64,000 nt of DNA, from IMG/VR virus record IMGVR_UViG_3300027969_000040. One strand, 5' to 3'. The notes under the pieces were generated by a model. That model was not told where the DNA came from. It ran no database searches and saw only the letters and a list, made by a program, of their open reading frames with translations. This document shows positions 8,865 to 57,480 of this stretch, one piece after another. Made by a program: the position numbers and the translations under genes. Numbering within the stretch: the stretch's first letter is position 1; each line of letters begins with the position of its first letter. The DNA is from a virus. Its lineage: Duplodnaviria > Caudoviricetes.

Positions 8865-9590
8865 CTATTGATTTTTCTGATTGATTATAGTTTGATTTAC
8901 TGACCCAATTAAGGATGGTGATAACATTTTGAGTATATCTAACATCTTAATATCATTAAGATATATGAAGCCGCCTTGAAAATATTTATATCTATCCGAT
9001 AGCCTCTCCAATATAAACTTTGATATTTTTATCTCTCCATCTAAATTTTTTATATAATTTACTAGTGCATGTCGATCCTCAAGTTTGATGAAACCTTCTT
9101 TTAAGCGTACCTTATACGGATGATCACTTTCTTTTTTAGTGATAATAAAACCTTGATCTAACAATTTTTTGTCCGAATCAAATTCTAACAACGAAACCGA
9201 ACTCAATCTAGTTTTATGCTCGCTTAAAATTTCATTAGCTACATTATACAAGTAAGATTCTGAATCTGCAAATACAGTGAAAGAATAATAACTAATTCTA
9301 AATTTTACTTTAACATTGGTTGGTGTTGTATAATATTTGTAAAAGTCTTCTAGTGTTTTTAAACTTGCATTTTGATTTTTGTATCTGACAAATCTGTCTG
9401 TGTTTCTATAATTAAAAGCCTTCACAGTTGATGGTAGTTTATCAGCAGTTTTACAATTAATCAAACATCTTGCACCTTGTAAATTATAAGTTAAACTGTA
9501 ACAAAACTCGTTAAAAAATTTCTTCTTAGTATAAAGAAATCGCAAGTCTCGATTTAGTTTACTCCACTCTGATAAATCCATTTTTGTCAA
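8865..9590 (-). CDS. Hypothetical protein
   Basis: 241-aa ORF overlapping the 3' end of clpA. Confidence 0.75.
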   Translation of the reverse strand: MTKMDLSEWSKLNRDLRFLYTKKKFFNEFCYSLTYNLQGARCLINCKTADKLPSTVKAFNYRNTDRFVRYKNQNASLKTLEDFYKYYTTPTNVKVKFRISYYSFTVFADSESYLYNVANEILSEHKTRLSSVSLLEFDSDKKLLDQGFIITKKESDHPYKVRLKEGFIKLEDRHALVNYIKNLDGEIKISKFILERLSDRYKYFQGGFIYLNDIKMLDILKMLSPSLIGSVNQTIINQKNQ

Positions 9591-11862
9591 CTGATGGTAC
9601 CCCTTCGATCAATAGCTGCATGTTATAGGCAATTACAGTAAAAGTCAAATCTTTTTCCTGGCAATCTACATTAATAATAGATCCGTTTTCCAAATTCTCA
9701 AACAATATTTTTTTACTAATAGGTACTTTAATCAAATCGTTAATTACACGATTCAATGGCCTTGCGCCCATTCTCTTATCAAACCCTTTTTCAACTAGTA
9801 AGTCAACGGCACGTTCAGTTAGACGCAATTTAATTTGTCTATCGGATAGTAAATCATTGATTTCTGACATAAATTTAGCGACAATCTTTTTCATGCTAAA
9901 CTGATCTAATGTTTTAAACTTACATATAGCATCAAGTCTATTTCGAAACTCGGGTTTAAAAAATTCCTTAACTGCCTTATCGTCCTCACCTGTGCGCTCT
10001 AACGATTGACCAAATCCAATGGTATTGCGTTCGTTATCGGCAGCGCCTAGATTACTAGTCATAATTAAAATAGAGTTACGTGCATCGGCTTTTTTACCAT
10101 TGCTACCAGTAATAAATCCTTCATCCATAAATTGCAACAAGATATTTGTTACATCAGGATGAGCTTTTTCAATCTCATCTAATAGGATAATTGAGTTTGG
10201 ATTTTGTTCTAAAGCACTAATTAATAATCCACTGCCAGCTGCTGAATCTTCATATCCAACATACCCAGGAGGTGCACCGATTAACTTAGCCATGCTATGT
10301 TTTTCTTGGTACTCACTCATATCGTAGCGAACCATCTTCATTGACAAATTGGTTGCAAGTAACTTAGCTAATTCAGTTTTTCCAGTACCAGTTGGCCCCA
10401 AGAATAAAAAGCTACCAATTGGTTTGTTAATTGATTTAATACCTGCTTTACTTACGAATATTCGCTCTAACACAGAAGTTACGGCATCCTCTTGACCGTA
10501 CAGCCCTTGGTTTATATTGATTTCTAAATTAACAAGGCTATTAGTATTATCACTGCCAATTTGATCAACTGGTATCTTAGTAGCGCGACTTAGTGCTTCT
10601 ACAATCTGCGATTTGCCTAATACAAAGTCTGAATCTTGCTTGATTTGTATTTTTTGTTTAGCACATGCAGTATCCATTAAGTCTATTGCTTTGTCTGGCA
10701 GCTTTTTGTCAGGTTGATATCTAATGCTATAATCAACGGCGGCATCAATTGATTCATCTGAAATTTTAATGTTATGGAATTTTTCAAAATTTAATCTTAT
10801 ACCTTTAAGTATAAGTTTCGAATCACTTGCACTAGGTTCGTCTACAGTTAATCGTTGAAATCTACGCATCAATGCTCGATCTTTTTCGAAGCTTTGTACA
10901 TATTCATCCCATGTAGTAGATGCGATAACTTTAATCTTGCCCTTAGTTAATGCAGGTTTAATCATGTTACTAAAGTCGACCGAGCTAGAAGAGCCACCGC
11001 CAGCGCCACGCATCTGATGTGCCTCGTCGATGAATAGTATAGTTTTTTCTTTCATTATCAATGCTTTGATAACATTCTGAAATTTTTCTTCAAACTCGCC
11101 TCTATACTTACTTCCAGCTAATAAGCTACCTATATCTAAGTTATACACAGTATATGACTTTAGATATTCTGGTACATTACCGTCTACTATATTTTTAGCA
11201 AGTCCTTCTGCTAACATTGTTTTACCAACGCCCGGATCACCAACTAATAGGATATTGGCTTTATTACGTTTAGCCAATATATGAGACATTTCTGTTAGTT
11301 CAAACTCTCGTCCAATAATAGGATCAAGTTCACCTTTCTTGGCCAAGTTGTTCAGATTTGTACAAAACTCATCTAACATTTCTTCGGCACGCTCTGCATT
11401 TATATTTGGAGAATTTAAATCCGACTCGGTATTAAATTTTTTGTATAATTCCATTAGGGTTGCACGATCAATTCCGTACTTTAACATAAAATAGAATGCA
11501 TAGCTATTTGATTCCATTGAAATGCTTAATACCAAGTCAATGATTTTAATACGGTTAGATCCGTGAAACAACACTTGTGTTAGTGCTCTATTAAATACAC
11601 GTTCTAACGTTTGTGTTTTTCTTGGAGTATGCGATTCTTCGACTACTAAATGTGTTTGTGCATTTAAATAATGGCTTAGTTCACCCACCAGGCCGTTGAC
11701 ATCAAAATTTAATTTTATCAATATCTTCTTAAAAGGACTATATTGAAAAATAGCCAATGCTAGATGTTCTAAAGTTACATATTCATGTTTAAGCGACTTA
11801 GCAGCCTCGCTGGCTTTAAGTATAATTTCTTCAATCTCTGCATTTGGTCTCATTGACGACAT
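9559..11862 (-). CDS. clpA: ATP-dependent Clp protease ATPase subunit, ClpA-type
   Basis: Clp N-domain (HEYVTLEHL); Walker A motifs GDPGVGKT and GPTGTGKT; Walker B motifs FIDEAH and LLDEIEK; IGF loop (TIGFG); no ClpB middle domain. Confidence 0.92.
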   Translation of the reverse strand: MSSMRPNAEIEEIILKASEAAKSLKHEYVTLEHLALAIFQYSPFKKILIKLNFDVNGLVGELSHYLNAQTHLVVEESHTPRKTQTLERVFNRALTQVLFHGSNRIKIIDLVLSISMESNSYAFYFMLKYGIDRATLMELYKKFNTESDLNSPNINAERAEEMLDEFCTNLNNLAKKGELDPIIGREFELTEMSHILAKRNKANILLVGDPGVGKTMLAEGLAKNIVDGNVPEYLKSYTVYNLDIGSLLAGSKYRGEFEEKFQNVIKALIMKEKTILFIDEAHQMRGAGGGSSSSVDFSNMIKPALTKGKIKVIASTTWDEYVQSFEKDRALMRRFQRLTVDEPSASDSKLILKGIRLNFEKFHNIKISDESIDAAVDYSIRYQPDKKLPDKAIDLMDTACAKQKIQIKQDSDFVLGKSQIVEALSRATKIPVDQIGSDNTNSLVNLEININQGLYGQEDAVTSVLERIFVSKAGIKSINKPIGSFLFLGPTGTGKTELAKLLATNLSMKMVRYDMSEYQEKHSMAKLIGAPPGYVGYEDSAAGSGLLISALEQNPNSIILLDEIEKAHPDVTNILLQFMDEGFITGSNGKKADARNSILIMTSNLGAADNERNTIGFGQSLERTGEDDKAVKEFFKPEFRNRLDAICKFKTLDQFSMKKIVAKFMSEINDLLSDRQIKLRLTERAVDLLVEKGFDKRMGARPLNRVINDLIKVPISKKILFENLENGSIINVDCQEKDLTFTVIAYNMQLLIEGVPSVDKNGFIRVE

Positions 11863-35754: not shown

Positions 35755-38391
35755 TTATACTCTTACATATTTCTTTGGTCTAGGATATACTCTTCCACTT
35801 CCACTTTCGTTATCAATTCTGATCCAATAGTTTTTCTTAGGATATACCATACCAGTCACTGGTCTTTCGTAAGGCATAAACAAATATCTATTATTTGCAC
35901 CTTGCAAGTGATGTTGATTTGACACCCAAGTCGGACTGGTACCAACAGTTGGGCTAAACATTTGACCAGTCTTACTGTGATAAGTTATATACTTTAATGC
36001 CTTTGCTGGGCTCATTCTTGGATATCTTTGTAACACACAAGCCAATACTCCTGTCACCTGTGGCGCGGCCATACTAGTACCTATATTTTTTCCAATGAAA
36101 TAACTGTTAGACCGTGCATCTACTGAAGTACCATTCCCTCCGCCGCCGATGTCTGACACTGAACTAATAATCCAGGTGCCCGGAGCAAACACATCAAGTC
36201 TAGGGCCTGTATTACTATAATAGGCTTTACGTTCCGTTCTATTTGCATCAACTGCTCCAACACAAATTGCTCCCAAGGACGCACCCGGTGCACACCCTCG
36301 GTTATAATTTAATTCAATTGCATATTGATTTAAATATCTAAAGTAGTAAACATTATTATAATCTAATCCACCAACCTTGTCGATATATTGACTTTCATTT
36401 CCGGCAGCGCCAACAACAATTATACCATCAGCAATCGCTTGCTGTACATCCGCAGTCTCGTCGGACCATAATATAGGTATGGTTGCTGTACCTGAATTAG
36501 CATATATACCTAAATTTGTTAATTGTGTTTGAGATAACGGTGTATCTGCTGTCCAGACACCAATCTTGCTTCCTCTGCGAGTTCCTTCAATGATAGGCCC
36601 TACCCCGCCGGTGGCGCTGGGGCTATGTGTTAAAGAGCTGCCATAACTACAATTACATATAGTAGGATTACGAAGTCCGGTAGCCGGATTTATTGGTTTA
36701 GAGTTATGAAATGCCCTGATGTAGTCCCATATAATTAATGAATCAATTGTACCCGACACCGGATCAATTTGATAAATGTTAGCATCGACAGCCCACCCTT
36801 GGCTATTACCTGCTACGGATCCTGCTGTATGTGCGCCGTGATTGGCATTACTTGCATCGGCTGCTTTTGCATACGAGTAAGATCCTGTCAATAAAGTAGC
36901 ACTGTCGTCATCTAAACTTGCTGCAATAGTATTTAATTGGTGCCAATCAAATTGAACACATCTAGAACCGCCGGTACCATCACGAACACGAGCAAACTCT
37001 GGGTGATTCGGAACTCCGGACATACCGTCTACTATAATAACATCAACGTGTTGCCCAGTGGGTTCTATCCTGACTGGTTTTATGTCACTAGCAGGTGGCG
37101 GCGGCGGATAATATGGTGGAGTAGGTGGCGGCGCAGGGCCAGGTGGCGGTGCCGGAGGATAATATGGTGGTGGTGCCGGTGGTGGAGCAGGCGGTGTGCC
37201 ATTATCACCAAATGGGCCAGGGGTAACTGTAATTAACGTTACATTGTTGTGATTAGTAATAGTACTAGATATTCCCGATACATCTGCAATTGCTTCTTTA
37301 ATCAGTAATACTGTACCAGTAATAGTATTCAATGGACTAGTTGGTACAGTAAAATTGCTGGTATATACTGGCGCAGATCTGGTGACTCTTACATTAGTTA
37401 TCTGCCCTTTAAAAGGATCTTCGCTTAAAAAGTCACTACCGCCAATCATAAATGGCAATGGGGTTTGTATATAATTTACTCCTGTTACGTTTTTTCTTAA
37501 TACTGACACACCATTTAAATAAATGTCTAACGAATTTCCATTTCTAACCGCTGCAACATGATACCATTGAGCGTTAACAATGTTCTCGGGTATTTGATAT
37601 ATGTCGGGACTGGAAATATTCCACTCTGTGCCGTTTGATGACGATGCTACTAGTAATTTTCCCGACTGTGTTCCTATACTAATTGGGGCATATTGACCTA
37701 CGTTTGTAGGGCTGCCATTGGTGGCTCTTAGTCCTATAATCTGAGCATACGAGGTTCTTGTTACTGTTTGTCTAAACCAACATTCCATACACCAGTTGCT
37801 TGTACCTAGTGCGACATTCATCGATGGAGATACACACTTTAACCATTGGTTAGCAGTCCCAGCAAAAGATAGTGCCGATATAAATGACGAACTAATTCTG
37901 TTACCTGGATTTGTAACTGATGTAGTATTAGCAATGCTGTAAGCACCTGTGTTTACTAATCCTCCTGTTGCATTATCGTCACCCCAATTTGATATTTGTG
38001 TTCCTAATGTACACCTTAATAACGCCCAGTTTGTAGATAAACTATCGATTGCTGTAGGGTAACCGCGTTTATCATAATTAGATCCAGAATTGGTTACTCC
38101 TGTTAGTATCCGTGTTAACTTTTTACTTTGACGGATTAAATTTGCCGGATTAACTGCCACGACCCTAGGGTCCGATCTTAACAAATTAATTTCTTCTACT
38201 GTTAACATATAATGAGTATTTACGCTCATAGGTCTGCGCATATACACTGGAACTTGCCTATCAGGAATATACAAATCGCCGCCAGGCGTTTCCATATCAT
38301 CATAGAATGACTCTAATAGTTCCATTGATTTCAATGTAACTACACACTCCATTAATTCAATTGATATAGGATCAGTTGACAGCATTTCCAT
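35755..38391 (-). CDS. Subtilisin-family (S8) serine protease with inserted LamG/concanavalin-like domain and polyproline linker
   Basis: Catalytic triad contexts VDVIIVDG, NHGAHTAGSVAG and GTSMAAPQVTG; LamG pattern WYHVAAVR...IYLNG and FKGQITNVRV. Confidence 0.88.
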   Translation of the reverse strand: MEMLSTDPISIELMECVVTLKSMELLESFYDDMETPGGDLYIPDRQVPVYMRRPMSVNTHYMLTVEEINLLRSDPRVVAVNPANLIRQSKKLTRILTGVTNSGSNYDKRGYPTAIDSLSTNWALLRCTLGTQISNWGDDNATGGLVNTGAYSIANTTSVTNPGNRISSSFISALSFAGTANQWLKCVSPSMNVALGTSNWCMECWFRQTVTRTSYAQIIGLRATNGSPTNVGQYAPISIGTQSGKLLVASSSNGTEWNISSPDIYQIPENIVNAQWYHVAAVRNGNSLDIYLNGVSVLRKNVTGVNYIQTPLPFMIGGSDFLSEDPFKGQITNVRVTRSAPVYTSNFTVPTSPLNTITGTVLLIKEAIADVSGISSTITNHNNVTLITVTPGPFGDNGTPPAPPPAPPPYYPPAPPPGPAPPPTPPYYPPPPPASDIKPVRIEPTGQHVDVIIVDGMSGVPNHPEFARVRDGTGGSRCVQFDWHQLNTIAASLDDDSATLLTGSYSYAKAADASNANHGAHTAGSVAGNSQGWAVDANIYQIDPVSGTIDSLIIWDYIRAFHNSKPINPATGLRNPTICNCSYGSSLTHSPSATGGVGPIIEGTRRGSKIGVWTADTPLSQTQLTNLGIYANSGTATIPILWSDETADVQQAIADGIIVVGAAGNESQYIDKVGGLDYNNVYYFRYLNQYAIELNYNRGCAPGASLGAICVGAVDANRTERKAYYSNTGPRLDVFAPGTWIISSVSDIGGGGNGTSVDARSNSYFIGKNIGTSMAAPQVTGVLACVLQRYPRMSPAKALKYITYHSKTGQMFSPTVGTSPTWVSNQHHLQGANNRYLFMPYERPVTGMVYPKKNYWIRIDNESGSGRVYPRPKKYVRV

Positions 38392-38392
38392 A

Positions 38393-39637
38393 TTATTGCT
38401 CCGTTTTAACTAGTGTTAGTGTAACAGTAACATTAGCAGTTTGTCCACTTAAATTAGTTAACGATACTGGTATTATGTTGGTTACAGGACTTTCGTCGTT
38501 ATATCCTAAAACTGCCGGGCTTAGTACAACAGTTTGAGATCCTGTGGTAATAACCTCTAATATTACGCCAGCGTCTGACAAGGGATCAGATGTCATACCT
38601 CTGGCAGAGTCGGCCGTCCTGGCTGCTACGTTTGTGTAGAGTCTAACCCATGCTGCTGCACTTACATTTATTTTATATAAATTATATCCTTTAAATCCAT
38701 TTATATTAAATGTAGTTGTTGCGTTATTCAAAACGCTTGGACTAGTAGTAGTAATACTTGTTCTTGATACTAATCCCGACGGACCAGTTTCTCCAGTTGC
38801 TCCAGTACCACCCGGCCCTGTTGGACCAGTTGGTCCGGTTGCACCTGCACCAGTTGCACCCGCTGGACCTGTTGCACCAGTATCGCCCATTGCTCCAGTT
38901 TCTCCAGTTGCTCCAGTTGCTCCGCCCGGATCTCCGGTGTCGCCAATCGGACCAGTCGGACCAGTTGCTCCTGAACCTGTTGCACCAATGGGACCTGTTG
39001 CTCCGGTGGCCCCAGTAGTACCAGTTAATCCAGTTGCTCCTGAACCTGTTGCACCAATGGGACCTGTTGCTCCGTTGTTACCTGTTACACCTGTACTACC
39101 TGTTAATCCGGTAGCGCCTATCCCTGTAGCACCTGTTGCTCCGGTCTCACCTGCACCAGTTGCACCAGTTGCGCCACCGGGAGATCCAGTGGCACCTTTA
39201 AGACCAGTAGCACCAACAAGGCCGGCTGGCCCAACGGCTCCAGTTGCACCTTTTGGACCAACTGCACCCGGAGTTCCTGCATCGCCTGTGAGTCCTGCTG
39301 GGCCGGCCGGCCCGGTTAGTCCAGTTAAGCCTCTTATACCAGTAGCACCCATCGCGCCAGCTGGCCCGGTTAGTCCAGCTGTTCCAGCATTTCCTCTGCT
39401 GCCTACATATCCCAATGTTCCGGCTAATCCAGCATTTCCTCTGCTGCCTACATATCCGATGCTGCCTACATAGCCAGCTGTTCCAGCATTTCCTCTGCTG
39501 CCTACATATCCAGAATTACTAATAGTAATTCTGGCAGTGTTAGTTCCTGTTCCAATATATGGTTTTGTTATAGCAACGCCGTTACCATAAAACTCCACAA
39601 ACGTTACATCAGGGTAGCCAATTATTTGAATGGACAT
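38393..39637 (-). CDS. Collagen-like virion protein
   Basis: About 250 aa of Gly-X-Y repeats (GAT/GPT/GLT) plus a globular C-terminal domain. Confidence 0.85.
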
Positions 39638-49014: not shown

Positions 49015-51324
49015 TTATTTTCCTTTGTATTGTTGATCCACCATCTCTTGGTGTAACCTATCACTGCTTAATGATCGCAACGCACGAGCGTTATCGATTG
49101 TTTTTTGATTTCCGTATATGTCCTTTGGTGCATAAAATGTACCATCTTTCATTACTGTTATTGAATACACATCAAAGCCTCGAGGTTGTGTGGCTATTGA
49201 TGCAATATCTACTCCGCCTGCTAATTCATTTGGCTGCACATTCCGCTTAACTGTTTCGGTTTGTTGTTCGGTTTGTGCTGTTTCTATATTAGCACGAGTT
49301 TCTACTATTTCTGTAATAGATGTACCACGAGACATTGTACTAGTCGCAGGCATTACAGGCATGTCAATATCTAATGATCTACTTTCTATTTTAGAAAATT
49401 GTACTGGTGCTGTTTCTGCAACTGGTTGTTGTATGGATAACAAGGAACTCAACTGTTGTTCGTTATATGTAGTACTTTTATTTGCTGAATATGCAGCAGC
49501 CATTGAAAATACCGAAGTAGCATTTATCATTGGTTGATATATCTGTTCAACTGGTGTTGTACTAGCAACCAAATTTGAAGATTGCACCGATATAGCCATT
49601 AAACTTTGCAATGAAGTTGTAGTAGGACCTTGTAACTGTATTGCTGTCACTTGCTGAGGTGTTGCAATAGAAGTTTGAGATGATTGCATAGTACGATCTT
49701 GTGTTGCTTGGCCGCTGGCAGCACTCATTGTGTTCAGCACATCCACTGTGGCCATTGCTTGTTCTTGTGCATTAGCTGCCGAAGTTGCCGCCACTTGCTG
49801 TGCGTTCTGTACCGCTGCTGCTTGTGTAGCTCGATCTGCTGCTTGTATTTGCCCAATCAAACTCATAATTAAACTCATGTTAGGCGTTGACTTATTTGAT
49901 TGTTGCTGCTGAGCACCAGCACTTGCTACTGGTGGTGCAGATGCTTGTGATTGTTGTGCTATAGCTTGTACATCTTTCAATGTTTGCGGAATATTATCTG
50001 GGGCAGTAATTGCTCCAGTTGCAGATAATTGAGCACCACCTACATTAGTAACAGGTGCGCTGGCTGTACTGGACTCTTGTTGGGAAACAGATGCTGGGCC
50101 TACTACACTTGATGTAGTAGCACTGCTCTTACTCAGACTAGCAGCAAATGCAGCACCATATCCAGTGCAACTAGAACTATATAACGGATCTTTTGCACAA
50201 GGATCGGCAGTATAAATTATATTAGACCAAAAATTCCCAACCGACGATCCCTCACCAGATGATGCTCCTGACAGTCTAGCGGTACCCAATGCTACTTGAT
50301 TTAAACTTGATGGTAACAGGTATTTGTCTGTTACTATTCCGCTAGTACCTTCGGCTGTATAGTTATAAACTCGTTGGTTTAATATACGATTATTATTGTC
50401 GGTCACTGATGCGGTTACCCGCGCCATGGCAGGTATATCCATATACCAACTACATGAGCCGTCGCTATTTGTAGCAGTACATCCAGACCAACTTTGACCA
50501 ACATTATAGCTGAAGCCAAAATTAAATCCATGCACTGTGGCACCTATCCCCGCGTTAGTTAACGCAGTATTAATTGCAACTGCTTGATTATACGAGTTAG
50601 TAAAACCGTTTGACGGTAATAAATTATTAGTGGTAGTAACATTATTAAACCCTGCACATGTAGGTGCATATGCCGGATTTGTAATGCATGGATCAATGCG
50701 ATATTTTAAACTAAAACTAACATTGTAAATTTCAGGACCGTAATTGCCAGCCCAAAAATTGTTGTCCTTACCAATAAAACCCACTTGGGCATTGCTATAG
50801 TTTGTGGCAGCAATTGGGCTAGCAAATATTTCACTAAAGTTAAATTGAGTCCAATTGTATTTTCTATTAGTTTGGCTAGTGTAATCATAGTTTGCTGCTA
50901 GTCCACCTGCGGCATCATAAAATTTAACATAAGCACTCAAATAGTCCTGTCTGCCATCATCCCAACCATTGCCGTTCTTAGCCATAAAGCCAAAGTTGAA
51001 TCCGCTGAGTTGCACACCTGTGCCGCCAGCGGCCAGTGCTCGATTTATATTAATAATTTGATTTAAGTCGGTTTGACCGTAACTGAAATTGATATTGCCG
51101 CCATCTCTGATGCTAGGTCTAGGGCCACAATTACCGGGCTGACCAGCCTGAAAGCACAGTTGGTTGACATAGACACCGTTATTCCAGGTGCTGGTTGTAT
51201 CCGTGGCACCAGTACCGGTATTAATTAAATTACCGGTAGTTGGATCTACTGTTTGACTATTAGAAGAACTTAAAGACAAAAGCACCAAGCAAAGCGCCGA
51301 TGCCCAATTTCTGATACGTATCAT
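49015..51324 (-). CDS. 769-aa exported protein with beta-rich N-terminal domains and Gln/Ser/Ala-rich linker
   Basis: Signal-like N-terminus; repeated C..(N/D)P.Y...C.G; low-complexity middle region. Confidence 0.8.
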   Translation of the reverse strand: MIRIRNWASALCLVLLSLSSSNSQTVDPTTGNLINTGTGATDTTSTWNNGVYVNQLCFQAGQPGNCGPRPSIRDGGNINFSYGQTDLNQIININRALAAGGTGVQLSGFNFGFMAKNGNGWDDGRQDYLSAYVKFYDAAGGLAANYDYTSQTNRKYNWTQFNFSEIFASPIAATNYSNAQVGFIGKDNNFWAGNYGPEIYNVSFSLKYRIDPCITNPAYAPTCAGFNNVTTTNNLLPSNGFTNSYNQAVAINTALTNAGIGATVHGFNFGFSYNVGQSWSGCTATNSDGSCSWYMDIPAMARVTASVTDNNNRILNQRVYNYTAEGTSGIVTDKYLLPSSLNQVALGTARLSGASSGEGSSVGNFWSNIIYTADPCAKDPLYSSSCTGYGAAFAASLSKSSATTSSVVGPASVSQQESSTASAPVTNVGGAQLSATGAITAPDNIPQTLKDVQAIAQQSQASAPPVASAGAQQQQSNKSTPNMSLIMSLIGQIQAADRATQAAAVQNAQQVAATSAANAQEQAMATVDVLNTMSAASGQATQDRTMQSSQTSIATPQQVTAIQLQGPTTTSLQSLMAISVQSSNLVASTTPVEQIYQPMINATSVFSMAAAYSANKSTTYNEQQLSSLLSIQQPVAETAPVQFSKIESRSLDIDMPVMPATSTMSRGTSITEIVETRANIETAQTEQQTETVKRNVQPNELAGGVDIASIATQPRGFDVYSITVMKDGTFYAPKDIYGNQKTIDNARALRSLSSDRLHQEMVDQQYKGK

Positions 51325-52549
51325 CTATTTTTACCTCATCTGTTTTCGGAATTTGATCTTTGTTTTCGTTCCATGCTGTACGAGCTGCTTCACCAATTTT
51401 ACCATCATACGGGCAAGGTGTTCCTGCTGCTAACATAGCATCAAAAACTCTACGGTCTTGGCACATGGTAGCAACTGCTGCAACCTTCATACCCATATCG
51501 TATAATGTTTTGCTTAGTTTCAATCGTTCGCAATTCATATCACGAACTGTTCCACCACTGCTAACACCAAATATTTGAGTTTGCACACTTCCGCTAGTAC
51601 CTGTACTACATAGGTCGGCATTACCGCCCGACATCATTGTTGGTGCAACTGCTGTCGGGGGAGGTTGAATAACACGTTGGGTAATTGTTGTTTCGTTGAT
51701 ATTTCTGTTGGTCATGTCACCTGTATTAACATTGTTGTTTTGATTAACATTGTTATTTTTGTTTTCACTGGTACTTGTATTGGTATTTTTATTGTCACTA
51801 GTGGATGCATTGTTATTATTATTGGTCATTGTGCCAGTATTAACATTGTTATTATTATTGGTCATTGTGCCAGTATTAACATTGTTATTAGTGTTCACAT
51901 TAGTAGCGGTACTAGTATTTGAATTAACATTATTGTTATTGTTGGTCATTGTACCGCTGTTTATGTTGTTATTGGTGTTTACATTAGTAGCACTACTAGT
52001 ATTAGAATTTTGATTAATGTTAGTCATTGTACCACTATTAACATTATTGTTATTATTAGTGTTAACATTAGTAGCAGTACTAGTATTAATATTACGGTTT
52101 GTCATATCTCCGGTATTAACATTGTTGTTTGTATTAACATTGGTACTAGAATTTGTATTCTGATTGATGTTAGTCATTGAACCGGAATTGATGTTGTTAT
52201 TAGTATACGTCATCGAACCACTATTAACATTGTTGTTATTATTAGTCATTGTACCGTTGTTGGTATTCTGATTAATATTAGTCATTGTACCGTTGTTGGT
52301 ATTATTGTTATTATTAGTGTTAACACTTGTACTACCAACGGTAGTTTGATTGATATTAGTTATGGTACCACTGTTGACATTATTTGTATTGACTGTGCTA
52401 GTACTATTAGAAGTACTGTTGGTATCGACCAGCGTAGTCGAACCATAGCCGCCGGTTAGGCTAGTACTTTGGTTAATCGGTGTTGTTTGCGCAATTACTG
52501 TAATGGTAAAAATTAACGCAACTATCCCCGTGAGGATTTTTCTAATCAT
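51260..52549 (-). CDS. Exported protein with Asn/Thr-rich repeats and a Cys-rich C-terminal domain
   Basis: Signal peptide; about 10 N(V/I)N(S/T)G(T/S/D)MT units; C-terminal CERLKLSKTL..MCQD..GTPCP and TM tail. Confidence 0.85.
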   Translation of the reverse strand: MIRKILTGIVALIFTITVIAQTTPINQSTSLTGGYGSTTLVDTNSTSNSTSTVNTNNVNSGTITNINQTTVGSTSVNTNNNNNTNNGTMTNINQNTNNGTMTNNNNNVNSGSMTYTNNNINSGSMTNINQNTNSSTNVNTNNNVNTGDMTNRNINTSTATNVNTNNNNNVNSGTMTNINQNSNTSSATNVNTNNNINSGTMTNNNNNVNSNTSTATNVNTNNNVNTGTMTNNNNNVNTGTMTNNNNNASTSDNKNTNTSTSENKNNNVNQNNNVNTGDMTNRNINETTITQRVIQPPPTAVAPTMMSGGNADLCSTGTSGSVQTQIFGVSSGGTVRDMNCERLKLSKTLYDMGMKVAAVATMCQDRRVFDAMLAAGTPCPYDGKIGEAARTAWNENKDQIPKTDEVKIDDTYQKLGIGALLGAFVFKFF

Positions 52550-56635: not shown

Positions 56636-56687
56636 ACCAATATTTACCCGTCTAATTAATTTTAAATATTACACTTATGTTACATAA

Positions 56688-56711
56688 GAAGAAACCCGCC
56701 GAAGCGGGTCC
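56688..56711 (-). terminator. Intrinsic terminator of the tmRNA gene
   Basis: ACCCGC-TTCG-GCGGGT-TTCTTCTT on the minus strand. Confidence 0.85.
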
Positions 56712-56755
56712 TTGCTATTTTTGGTGACAAGGTATAACTACCTCGGGTCTAGCAA

Positions 56756-56857
56756 TCAAGCGGCTAGTAAAACTGCTGAGTCATTAGCGGCTTGACGTCC
56801 AAAACGGAAGTTTTTGCCCATAGTAACTTTTACAGTACCTGTTGTATTTGCGTTTGC
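56756..56857 (-). other. tmRNA tag reading frame ANANTTGTVKVTMGKNFRFGRQAANDSAVLLAA*
   Basis: Translated from the GCA after TAAAT to TGA; 33 sense codons. Confidence 0.75.
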
Positions 56858-57013
56858 ATTTACGGATTTTGCGTCTGCAACCAAGCTTCGTCTTTCTATG
56901 CTATGAGCATAGCGACTAAAGTTACCTTAGTCCTGCGGCTTCTGCATTGCCGAGCTGTCCACTCATTTACTTGTTGCTCTGTCGAAACCAGGGCAGGCCC
57001 ATCAAAAAGAAAC

Positions 57014-57148
57014 TTACCATTTACCAATTGGACAATGTGCAAATGGTATTAAAGTTTTAGCCGGCATGTAACATCCGCACTTGTTGCAAACTTTTCGATC
57101 AGTATCAAAATGCTCACATACTATACAAATTGTGTACTTGTCGTTCAT
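57014..57148 (-). CDS. 44-aa Cys-rich protein inside the tmRNA intervening sequence (MNDKYTICIVCEHFDTDRKVCNKCGCYMPAKTLIPFAHCPIGKW)
   Basis: Manual translation; AAGGA SD; CxxC..CxxCGC..K..CP.GKW pattern (DUF6171-like). Confidence 0.8.
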   Translation of the reverse strand: MNDKYTICIVCEHFDTDRKVCNKCGCYMPAKTLIPFAHCPIGKW

Positions 57149-57243
57149 GAATTCCTTTTTGGTGGACCTGGCGGGAGTCGAACCCGCGTCCAGAACACTT
57201 TTCTCTTTGCTTCATACAGCAATAACTTTTATTTATCTCCAAA

Positions 57244-57480
57244 TCAATGTCTCACAGCAAACATACTGCTGATCATTGCTCTTACTAAAACTAAATCACT
57301 TTCACATGTAACTTCTATAGGTTCATCAAGATCTTCATCATCTTCCCATGCTTCCTTTGGAAACTGTAAAAAAGTAAAGATAGTTCTAAAGGTCACAGTC
57401 CTGCCTTGCGTGTAAGCCAACTCTATCACATCCACTATAGAATTCACCACCTGCTGTGTCTTGAAATCTAGCGGAGTCAT
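57244..57480 (-). CDS. Hypothetical protein
   Basis: 78-aa ORF. Confidence 0.65.
   Translation of the reverse strand: MTPLDFKTQQVVNSIVDVIELAYTQGRTVTFRTIFTFLQFPKEAWEDDEDLDEPIEVTCESDLVLVRAMISSMFAVRH

Follow-up and report, generated by a model that had tools for sequence, protein, structure and literature searches.

A permuted tmRNA gene encoding an extended, probably selected tag in an uncultured freshwater jumbo phage

Tags encoded by tmRNAs are usually treated as a minimal degron of 10 residues, and the gene examined in this study raises the question of whether a phage tag can carry a second peptide module in front of that degron and, if so, what such a module might do. The gene lies in a 64,000-nucleotide stretch of DNA (hereafter, the window) that forms part of the genome of an uncultured freshwater jumbo phage and also encodes tail-fibre proteins and a ClpA-like ATPase. 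A sequence-only reading of the window had proposed a 33-codon tag in which a canonical degron is preceded by an extension of 22 residues, and had suggested that the extension is a second recognition element, for instance for the phage ClpA, or changes the fate of rescued proteins, by which the phage might reprogramme ribosome rescue. A search of INPHARED gave no megablast match to the window, and neither the window nor the tag region has a close relative there. Relatives of the gene were found in IMG/VR, where a 32-mer from its tRNA-like 3' half (57191-57160) is identical in at least 119 contigs, approximately 100 of which contain a permuted tmRNA. Permuted (two-piece) tmRNAs are known to be borne by phages, including the OM43 phage Melnitz, and one survey found 53 of 133 unique phage tmRNAs to be two-piece (PMC9004378); tmRNAs are also carried by huge phages (PMC7162821).

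The single gene that ARAGORN identified in the window is a permuted tmRNA at 56665-57252 (minus strand), with the tag ANANTTGTVKVTMGKNFRFGRQAANDSAVLLAA followed by a stop. The Rfam model of permuted tmRNAs (RF04321, tmRNA_permuted) aligned in full (model positions 1-213) to 57221-56756 with a score of 88 bits (E 1.5e-15; gathering score 47), and its resume region fell on UAAAU followed by GCA AAC. Delimited by its parts, the gene spans 57221-56686 on the minus strand in the permuted order, with the acceptor piece ending at 57160, the coding piece beginning at 57000 and 159 nt between them. According to the RF04321 alignment and ARAGORN, the acceptor piece (57160-57221) comprises a strand of helix 2, the T arm (GCGGG-UUCGACU-CCCGC, 57187-57171), the 3' acceptor strand CAGGUCC (57170-57164) and the sequence ACCA (57163-57160), consisting of the discriminator A and an encoded CCA (57162-57160). 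The 159-nt intervening sequence (57001-57159), which would be removed on maturation, contains a Cys-rich open reading frame of 44 amino acids (MNDKYTICIVCEHF..., 57014-57148) with an AAGGA ribosome-binding site and a weak match to DUF6171 (E 0.003). The 5' part of the coding piece (56858-57000), delimited from the sequence and an alignment with 11 relatives, contains the resume context GCAAAAUCCGUAAAU (56872-56858) as well as the 5' acceptor strand GGGCCUG (57000-56994), helix 2 and the PK1 region. The extension ANANTTGTVKVTMGKNFRFGRQ occupies tag codons 1-22 at 56792-56857 (ARAGORN and a codon alignment of 13 family versions), and codons 23-33 (56759-56791) encode AANDSAVLLAA, a canonical-type C-terminal degron by comparison with the E. 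coli ANDENYALAA codons and with short-tag relatives (e.g., ANDEQFALAA). The tag stop UGA (56756-56758) sits in the loop of a predicted short hairpin, CUAGC...GCUAG, and the 3' part of the coding piece (56686-56755) consists of a conserved hairpin, GAGGUA...UACCUU, and an intrinsic terminator (56711-56686), as indicated by the consensus fold and a terminator scan.

Several hallmarks of a permuted tmRNA are present in these parts. The tRNA-like domain has a 7-bp acceptor stem with G3:U70, the alanine identity element, together with the T arm and the 3' CCA, and the tag frame combines an alanine resume codon after U(-5)A(-4), a stop in a hairpin and the ending CUA GCC GCU UGA. In a consensus fold of 14 relatives, pairing of the GGGGUA/UACCUU helix is kept through two-sided changes. 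A hairpin in the PK1 region (CGGC...GCCG) fits the RF04321 model, and UGCAG could pair with UUGCA as judged by eye; the alignment with 11 relatives also places a 41-nt insert of two hairpins in this region (56930-56890). The insert is missing from the nearest relatives of the window tmRNA (L077, L034 and L099) and nearly identical in a short-tag relative (L085), and is perhaps a small RNA element that is mobile or was recombined. Compared with the Caulobacter type represented by RF04321, the window tmRNA shares the acceptor piece with CCA, the intervening sequence, the coding piece, G3:U70, the UAAAU context before GCA AAC and the hydrophobic-AA end. It differs in that its intervening sequence carries a small protein gene and in that its tag has 33 codons, whereas the modal tag is 10 amino acids in the largest tmRNA database, which holds 97,179 sequences, 79 of them from phages (PMC11915505). 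Genes of related phages were surveyed in 20 large contigs (G001-G020, behind L005...L109), seven of which are at least 90% complete. A profile search for SmpB found no gene in any of the 20, so SmpB would have to come from the host, and the locus is best explained as a functional two-piece tmRNA of the phage that would use host SmpB. One relative (L151, JGI24890J29729_1005363) has an acceptor end reading ...CTCGTCCAAAAAG, in which CCA is apparently not encoded; in this it differs from the other members of its tag family (family C, below).

Contigs from lake-water metatranscriptomes of three studies match the coding piece at 99-100% identity (56653-56991, 56816-56991 and 56816-56978), and none at that identity covers the intervening open reading frame or most of the flanks. 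Other metatranscriptome pieces contain mismatches or match over only a few dozen bases. This pattern weakly suggests that RNA of the coding piece accumulates. The contig ends at 56991 and 56978, although near the predicted 5' end at 57000, were not taken as ends of the RNA, because the sequence shared with related tmRNAs starts there and DNA depth spikes at the same place.

The length of the tag depends on where translation resumes. Read from GCA at 56857-56855, the frame has 33 sense codons (56857-56759) before the stop TGA at 56758-56756, and the positions and peptide that had been proposed earlier are exact. The degron itself begins with GCC GCT AAT GAC (56791-56780), and resumption at GCC 56791 would instead give a normal tag of 11 codons and leave 66 nt upstream untranslated. 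Such a reading draws on the resemblance of AANDSAVLLAA by itself to a complete tag and on the occurrence of a full internal ANDSRFALAA in some versions of another tag family (family A, below). However, both the upstream GCA (GUAAAU) and the resume codon of E. coli (UAGUC) follow a U(-5)A(-4), which is lacking in the CGUCAA ahead of the internal codon, in keeping with the earlier remark that no comparable context precedes the internal AAND. A GCAAA-N3/4-(G/A)UAAA(U/C) block lies directly 5' of the tag frame in all of the approximately 100 related phage tmRNAs, and E. coli K-12 ssrA, whose known tag was recovered by ARAGORN, has the homologous block GCAAAAAAUAGUC followed by GCAAACGAC. The distance from the 5' end of the coding piece to the resume codon is 79-110 nt in most relatives, with short and long tags alike; it is 143 nt in the window tmRNA because of the 41-nt insert, and a few relatives also exceed the usual range. 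A canonical internal tag is missing altogether from some members of the same family (e.g., ...FRFGGSKSARTEAAFA), and the region upstream of the GCC is conserved at the codon level (see below). The conserved context and spacing, together with these relatives, make internal resumption extremely improbable, and on this comparative evidence the upstream GCA at 56857 is the resume codon. A further in-frame GCA at 56872, five codons upstream, would give a 38-codon tag; it was rejected as a start since it belongs to the universally conserved GCAAAA block, which is not the resume site in E. coli.

It is also important to note that ARAGORN misplaced or shifted the resume codon of at least seven relatives (L001, L077, L085, L098, L100, L158 and L159). 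The call was too far downstream in three of them, masking long tags (L001, L100 and L159), and too far upstream in two (L085 and L098). Applying the GUAAAU context rule to the miscalled relatives yields consistent tags, and the rule is needed wherever ARAGORN resume calls are used in this group of phage tmRNAs.

With resume codons corrected in this way, the tags of 99 IMG/VR relatives fall into two length classes: 53 are 10-14 codons long and 46 are 22-34, and the range of 15-21 is empty. This bimodality suggests that the extension is a discrete module rather than a product of drift, and the phenomenon is broad, including about half of the related phage tmRNA group. The long tags comprise 30 distinct peptides that start with A-x-A-x-T and belong to three families. 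Family A has ANADTFDFSAMSFTGNTV and family B has ANANTFEYFQV..., each followed by a degron, and family C, to which the window tag belongs, has the core GxVKVTxGKxFRFG. Families A and B are acidic and family C is basic, and the three have little in common beyond the A-x-A-x-T start. Two targeted scans, first of IMG/VR and then of JGI metagenomes, enlarged family C to 13 versions that differ in nucleotide sequence; their tags have 29, 32, 33 or 34 codons, and all lie in permuted tmRNA genes. The exact peptide of the window tag occurs in three metagenome contigs, which differ from the window only at synonymous third positions. Long tags do not appear to be a common property of bacterial tmRNAs, as the sequence-only reading had allowed they might be: the 11 of 185,579 bacterial species that share the exact 32-mer all have one-piece tmRNAs with tags of 8-10 codons, in line with the modal length of the database (PMC11915505), and no bacterial genome among those species has the 32-mer in a permuted gene.

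Several lines of evidence indicate that the extension is maintained as a peptide. By our own estimate, an open frame of 33 codons would arise by chance roughly once in eight times at 40% G+C, which is not rare; the tag frame goes beyond chance because it is open in all 13 versions of family C and the other frames are interrupted by stops (0-5 per frame, mostly 1-4), with frame 2 closed in 12 and frame 3 in all 13. All length differences among the 13 versions are multiples of three. Across six independent close pairs, the extension has 14 synonymous changes at 88 sites against 15 non-synonymous changes at 269 sites (pN/pS 0.35, binomial p 0.005), and column parsimony over families A, B and C counts 36 synonymous and 49 non-synonymous changes, where 25% synonymous would be expected (p 3.5e-4). 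In-frame indels, the synonymous excess and closed alternative frames together therefore point to an extension that is translated and selected, and by these codon-level measures it is kept as coding sequence under purifying selection. Within family C, the core of the extension is kept and the C-terminal part varies (AANDSAVLLAA, SKSARTEAAFA, SATRTAAFA). The tag is not claimed to be the best-conserved part of the RNA, since its nucleotide identity in family C (0.67-0.82, compared in 10 of the 13 versions) is no higher than that of the remainder.

The same region might be kept for the RNA rather than the peptide. In that case the additional 66 nt would provide the mRNA-like domain with a structure or binding site, for instance by extending helix 5 or by aiding stability or ribosome loading, and the peptide would be a by-product. 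A consensus fold of 14 family members offers this some encouragement: one helix joins the FRFG codons to the region of the stop codon, a few of its pairs change on both sides (83-140 and 84-139), and the degron-coding part of the window tmRNA folds into a long hairpin. However, the covariation term is just -0.52 kcal/mol and the fold z-score is -1.84, and little of the covariation falls within the extension, which places the signal mainly at the protein level. Since strictly in-frame indels and an excess of synonymous third-position changes are the signature of selection on protein, an RNA-level role is very unlikely to account for the extension. A full 33-codon tag carrying a selected peptide is very probably the correct anatomy, and the extension is probably functional because related phages keep its 22 residues at the protein level.

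The history of the extension bears on how specific that function might be. When the tmRNA backbone is used to build a tree, families A and B fall in one well-supported clade, members of family C are dispersed over short-tag lineages, and the supported branches require at least five switches between tag classes; since the RNA is short and many forks are unsupported, the tree was used to count changes and not to read their direction. The extension has therefore been gained or lost repeatedly and, to the extent that these changes are losses rather than gains, which the tree does not distinguish, it would be dispensable. This is what might be expected if the extension were a tolerated spacer, translated but important only in its length or general character (e.g., to hold the degron off a truncated protein) and with no sequence-specific partner. 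The great dissimilarity of the three families in sequence and charge fits that view, as do the repeated gains or losses in sister lineages and the failure to find a co-occurring phage gene in a comparison of three long-tag and four short-tag genomes (see below). A pure spacer, however, predicts a continuous range of lengths and low complexity, against the observed gap at 15-21 codons, and would not readily explain a pN/pS of 0.35 or the retention of a motif in each family across diverged tmRNA backbones. A spacer without a partner is considered unlikely.

The alternative favoured here is that the extension adds to what the degron already specifies. The E. coli SsrA tag, AANDENYALAA, contains separate determinants for SspB, ClpX and ClpA. 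The last 11 residues of the window tag, AANDSAVLLAA, have the same layout (an AAND start and a hydrophobic-AA end), the block before the resume codon is homologous, and position 7 is Val rather than Tyr, so that the mirroring of the E. coli tag and the replaced tyrosine described by the sequence-only reading are borne out. The window tag is unlike that of E. coli in having 22 further residues in front, and the E. coli system further differs in its SspB, for which a profile (PF04386) found no match in the 20 related phage contigs; a host's own SspB would lie outside these contigs. In the proposed mechanism, the alanine charged on the tmRNA would be passed to the stalled nascent chain, and the ribosome would resume at GCA 56857 and read 33 codons to UGA 56756. 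Rescued chains would end in Ala, ANANTTGTVKVTMGKNFRFGRQ and AANDSAVLLAA, an added tail of 34 residues including the charged alanine. The last 11 residues would act as the usual ClpX/ClpA-type degron, and the extension as an auxiliary recognition segment that alters which protease or adaptor takes the tagged chains, or how well. Its role would parallel that of the SspB-binding half of the E. coli tag and of the Lon-directed tag of mycoplasmas. The complete account, from functional tmRNA through 33-codon tag to auxiliary recognition segment, is put forward tentatively, with slightly less than an even chance of being right in all its parts.

In the passage of PMC8403727 that cites Gur and Sauer 2008, the 27-residue tag of Mycoplasma is described as adapted to Lon, and as presented there it offers a precedent for long tags that change the choice of protease. 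The Mycoplasma/Mesoplasma tags resemble the window tag in being two to three times the usual length, with extra residues thought to carry determinants for a protease other than ClpXP. In contrast, they are encoded by one-piece bacterial tmRNAs in hosts without ClpXP and are dissimilar in sequence. The window tag keeps the canonical LAA-type end, the phage has ClpA, ClpP and ClpS, and a Lon profile found no match in the 20 related contigs.

A segment that directs rescued chains to degradation is not the only fate that can be imagined. The extension might do something other than speed up proteolysis: tagged chains might be sequestered, aggregate or be captured by a chaperone, or they might occupy or block a protease or defence factor of the host to the benefit of the phage. 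Hydrophobic or aromatic residues alternate with polar ones in the extensions (e.g., VKVTM-GKN-FRF, FDFSAMSF, FEYFQVDFDV), and some members of family C end in AAFA, AVLA or SFAV instead of LAA. However, the canonical xLAA at the end of most long tags implies that degradation is still the end point, and structure prediction lends no support: AlphaFold2 with the 13-sequence family C alignment gave a low-confidence helix (pLDDT 57, pTM 0.20) and no usable structure. An impression of a beta-hairpin pattern in the extension was likewise supported by no tool and was set aside. A fate of this kind is distinctly unlikely, and an auxiliary segment that acts within proteolysis is preferred.

If the extension is such a segment, a reader might be expected among the genes of the phage. 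The window encodes a ClpA-like AAA+ unfoldase of 767 amino acids (9559-11862, minus strand) with the Pfam domains Clp_N, AAA, AAA_2 and ClpB_D2-small and a score of 826 bits against TIGR02639 (ClpA), under the equivalog cut-off of 993; it is regarded here as genomic context. Orthologues with 50-63% identity are found in 15 of the 20 related contigs and in all seven that are at least 90% complete, with either tag class, and ClpP has the same pattern. ClpS is present in 12 of the 20 and absent from two complete short-tag genomes, a difference that is not significant. ClpA, ClpP and mostly ClpS are thus core genes of this phage clade regardless of tag length, a combination without SmpB that bears on why large phages carry rescue and proteolysis genes. 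A second, divergent ClpP was also observed in two of the contigs (G002 and G004). The equal presence of ClpA with short tags led to its rejection as a reader specific to long tags; of the earlier proposal of a second recognition element, the conservation of the extension as protein and a likely function hold up, but the particular link to phage ClpA does not.

A phyletic profile (tblastn, all open reading frames) of near-complete genomes compared three with long tags (G005, G001 and G007) to four with short tags (G018, G016, G011 and G017). A fatty-acid desaturase and two adjacent oxidoreductase-like genes (38703-39404 and 288097-289874 in G005; 304539-305279 and 260089-261842 in G001) were present in all three long-tag genomes and in none of the four others, as were an open reading frame of 832 amino acids with weak partial matches and short open reading frames that look spurious. 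The desaturase and oxidoreductase-like genes are probably patchy auxiliary metabolic genes unrelated to the tag, and the three-versus-four comparison yielded no plausible phage-encoded reader specific to long tags. A blastp-short search with four tag peptides against the open reading frames of at least 30 amino acids in the window matched only the tag itself. A reader of the extension, if there is one, most likely comes from the host or is the core phage ClpA, ClpS or ClpP, and is not an accessory phage protein confined to long-tag genomes. The differences among the three families in sequence and charge argue against a single common receptor.

A more far-reaching idea is that the segment between resume codon and degron (12-24 residues, at least three families) is a cassette serving as an interchangeable address label chosen by the phage, a speculative possibility that we regard as unlikely. 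If true, chains rescued by the phage would be distinguishable from those rescued by the host tmRNA and would be routed to a particular machine (e.g., phage ClpAPS) or away from host adaptors, making ribosome rescue a programmable part of host takeover. Irrespective of this idea, three unrelated versions of the extension, repeatedly gained or lost, constitute a natural experiment on how a tag controls the fate of rescued proteins, and they are ready-made peptides to test with ClpXP, ClpAP/ClpS, Lon and adaptors. A literature search found no publication on conserved extended tags in phage tmRNAs, which are apparently new to the literature; the novelty lies in the conserved peptide module, as two-piece tmRNAs of phages and the long Mycoplasma tag were already known.

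Among cultured phages, the Xanthomonas phages XacN1 and X1 and the Stenotrophomonas phage Marzo have permuted genes with a closely similar T arm and acceptor end, but their tags have 12-14 codons and lack the extension. The permuted tmRNAs of XacN1 (L162 1473-1893; AP018399.1, about 37201-37621) and X1 (L164 778-1228; OQ427096.1; tag VAANDADYSVARYA) are unannotated in GenBank. XacN1 is a jumbo phage of approximately 385 kb, and its 12-codon tag, ANANTFDYALAA, starts with ANANTF as families A and B do. Elsewhere in the window, an open reading frame of 429 amino acids (51260-52549, minus strand) has an N-terminal hydrophobic segment, a very long Asn/Thr-rich repeat (NNNNVNSGTMTN...) and a Cys-containing C-terminal domain. 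In addition, tRNAs with a CUA anticodon (amber suppressors, labelled tRNA-Pyl by ARAGORN) lie within a few kb of the tmRNA in four relatives (L004, L046, L060 and L074) and in XacN1, which has two (L162 319-477), hinting at TAG read-through or recoding in this jumbo-phage clade.
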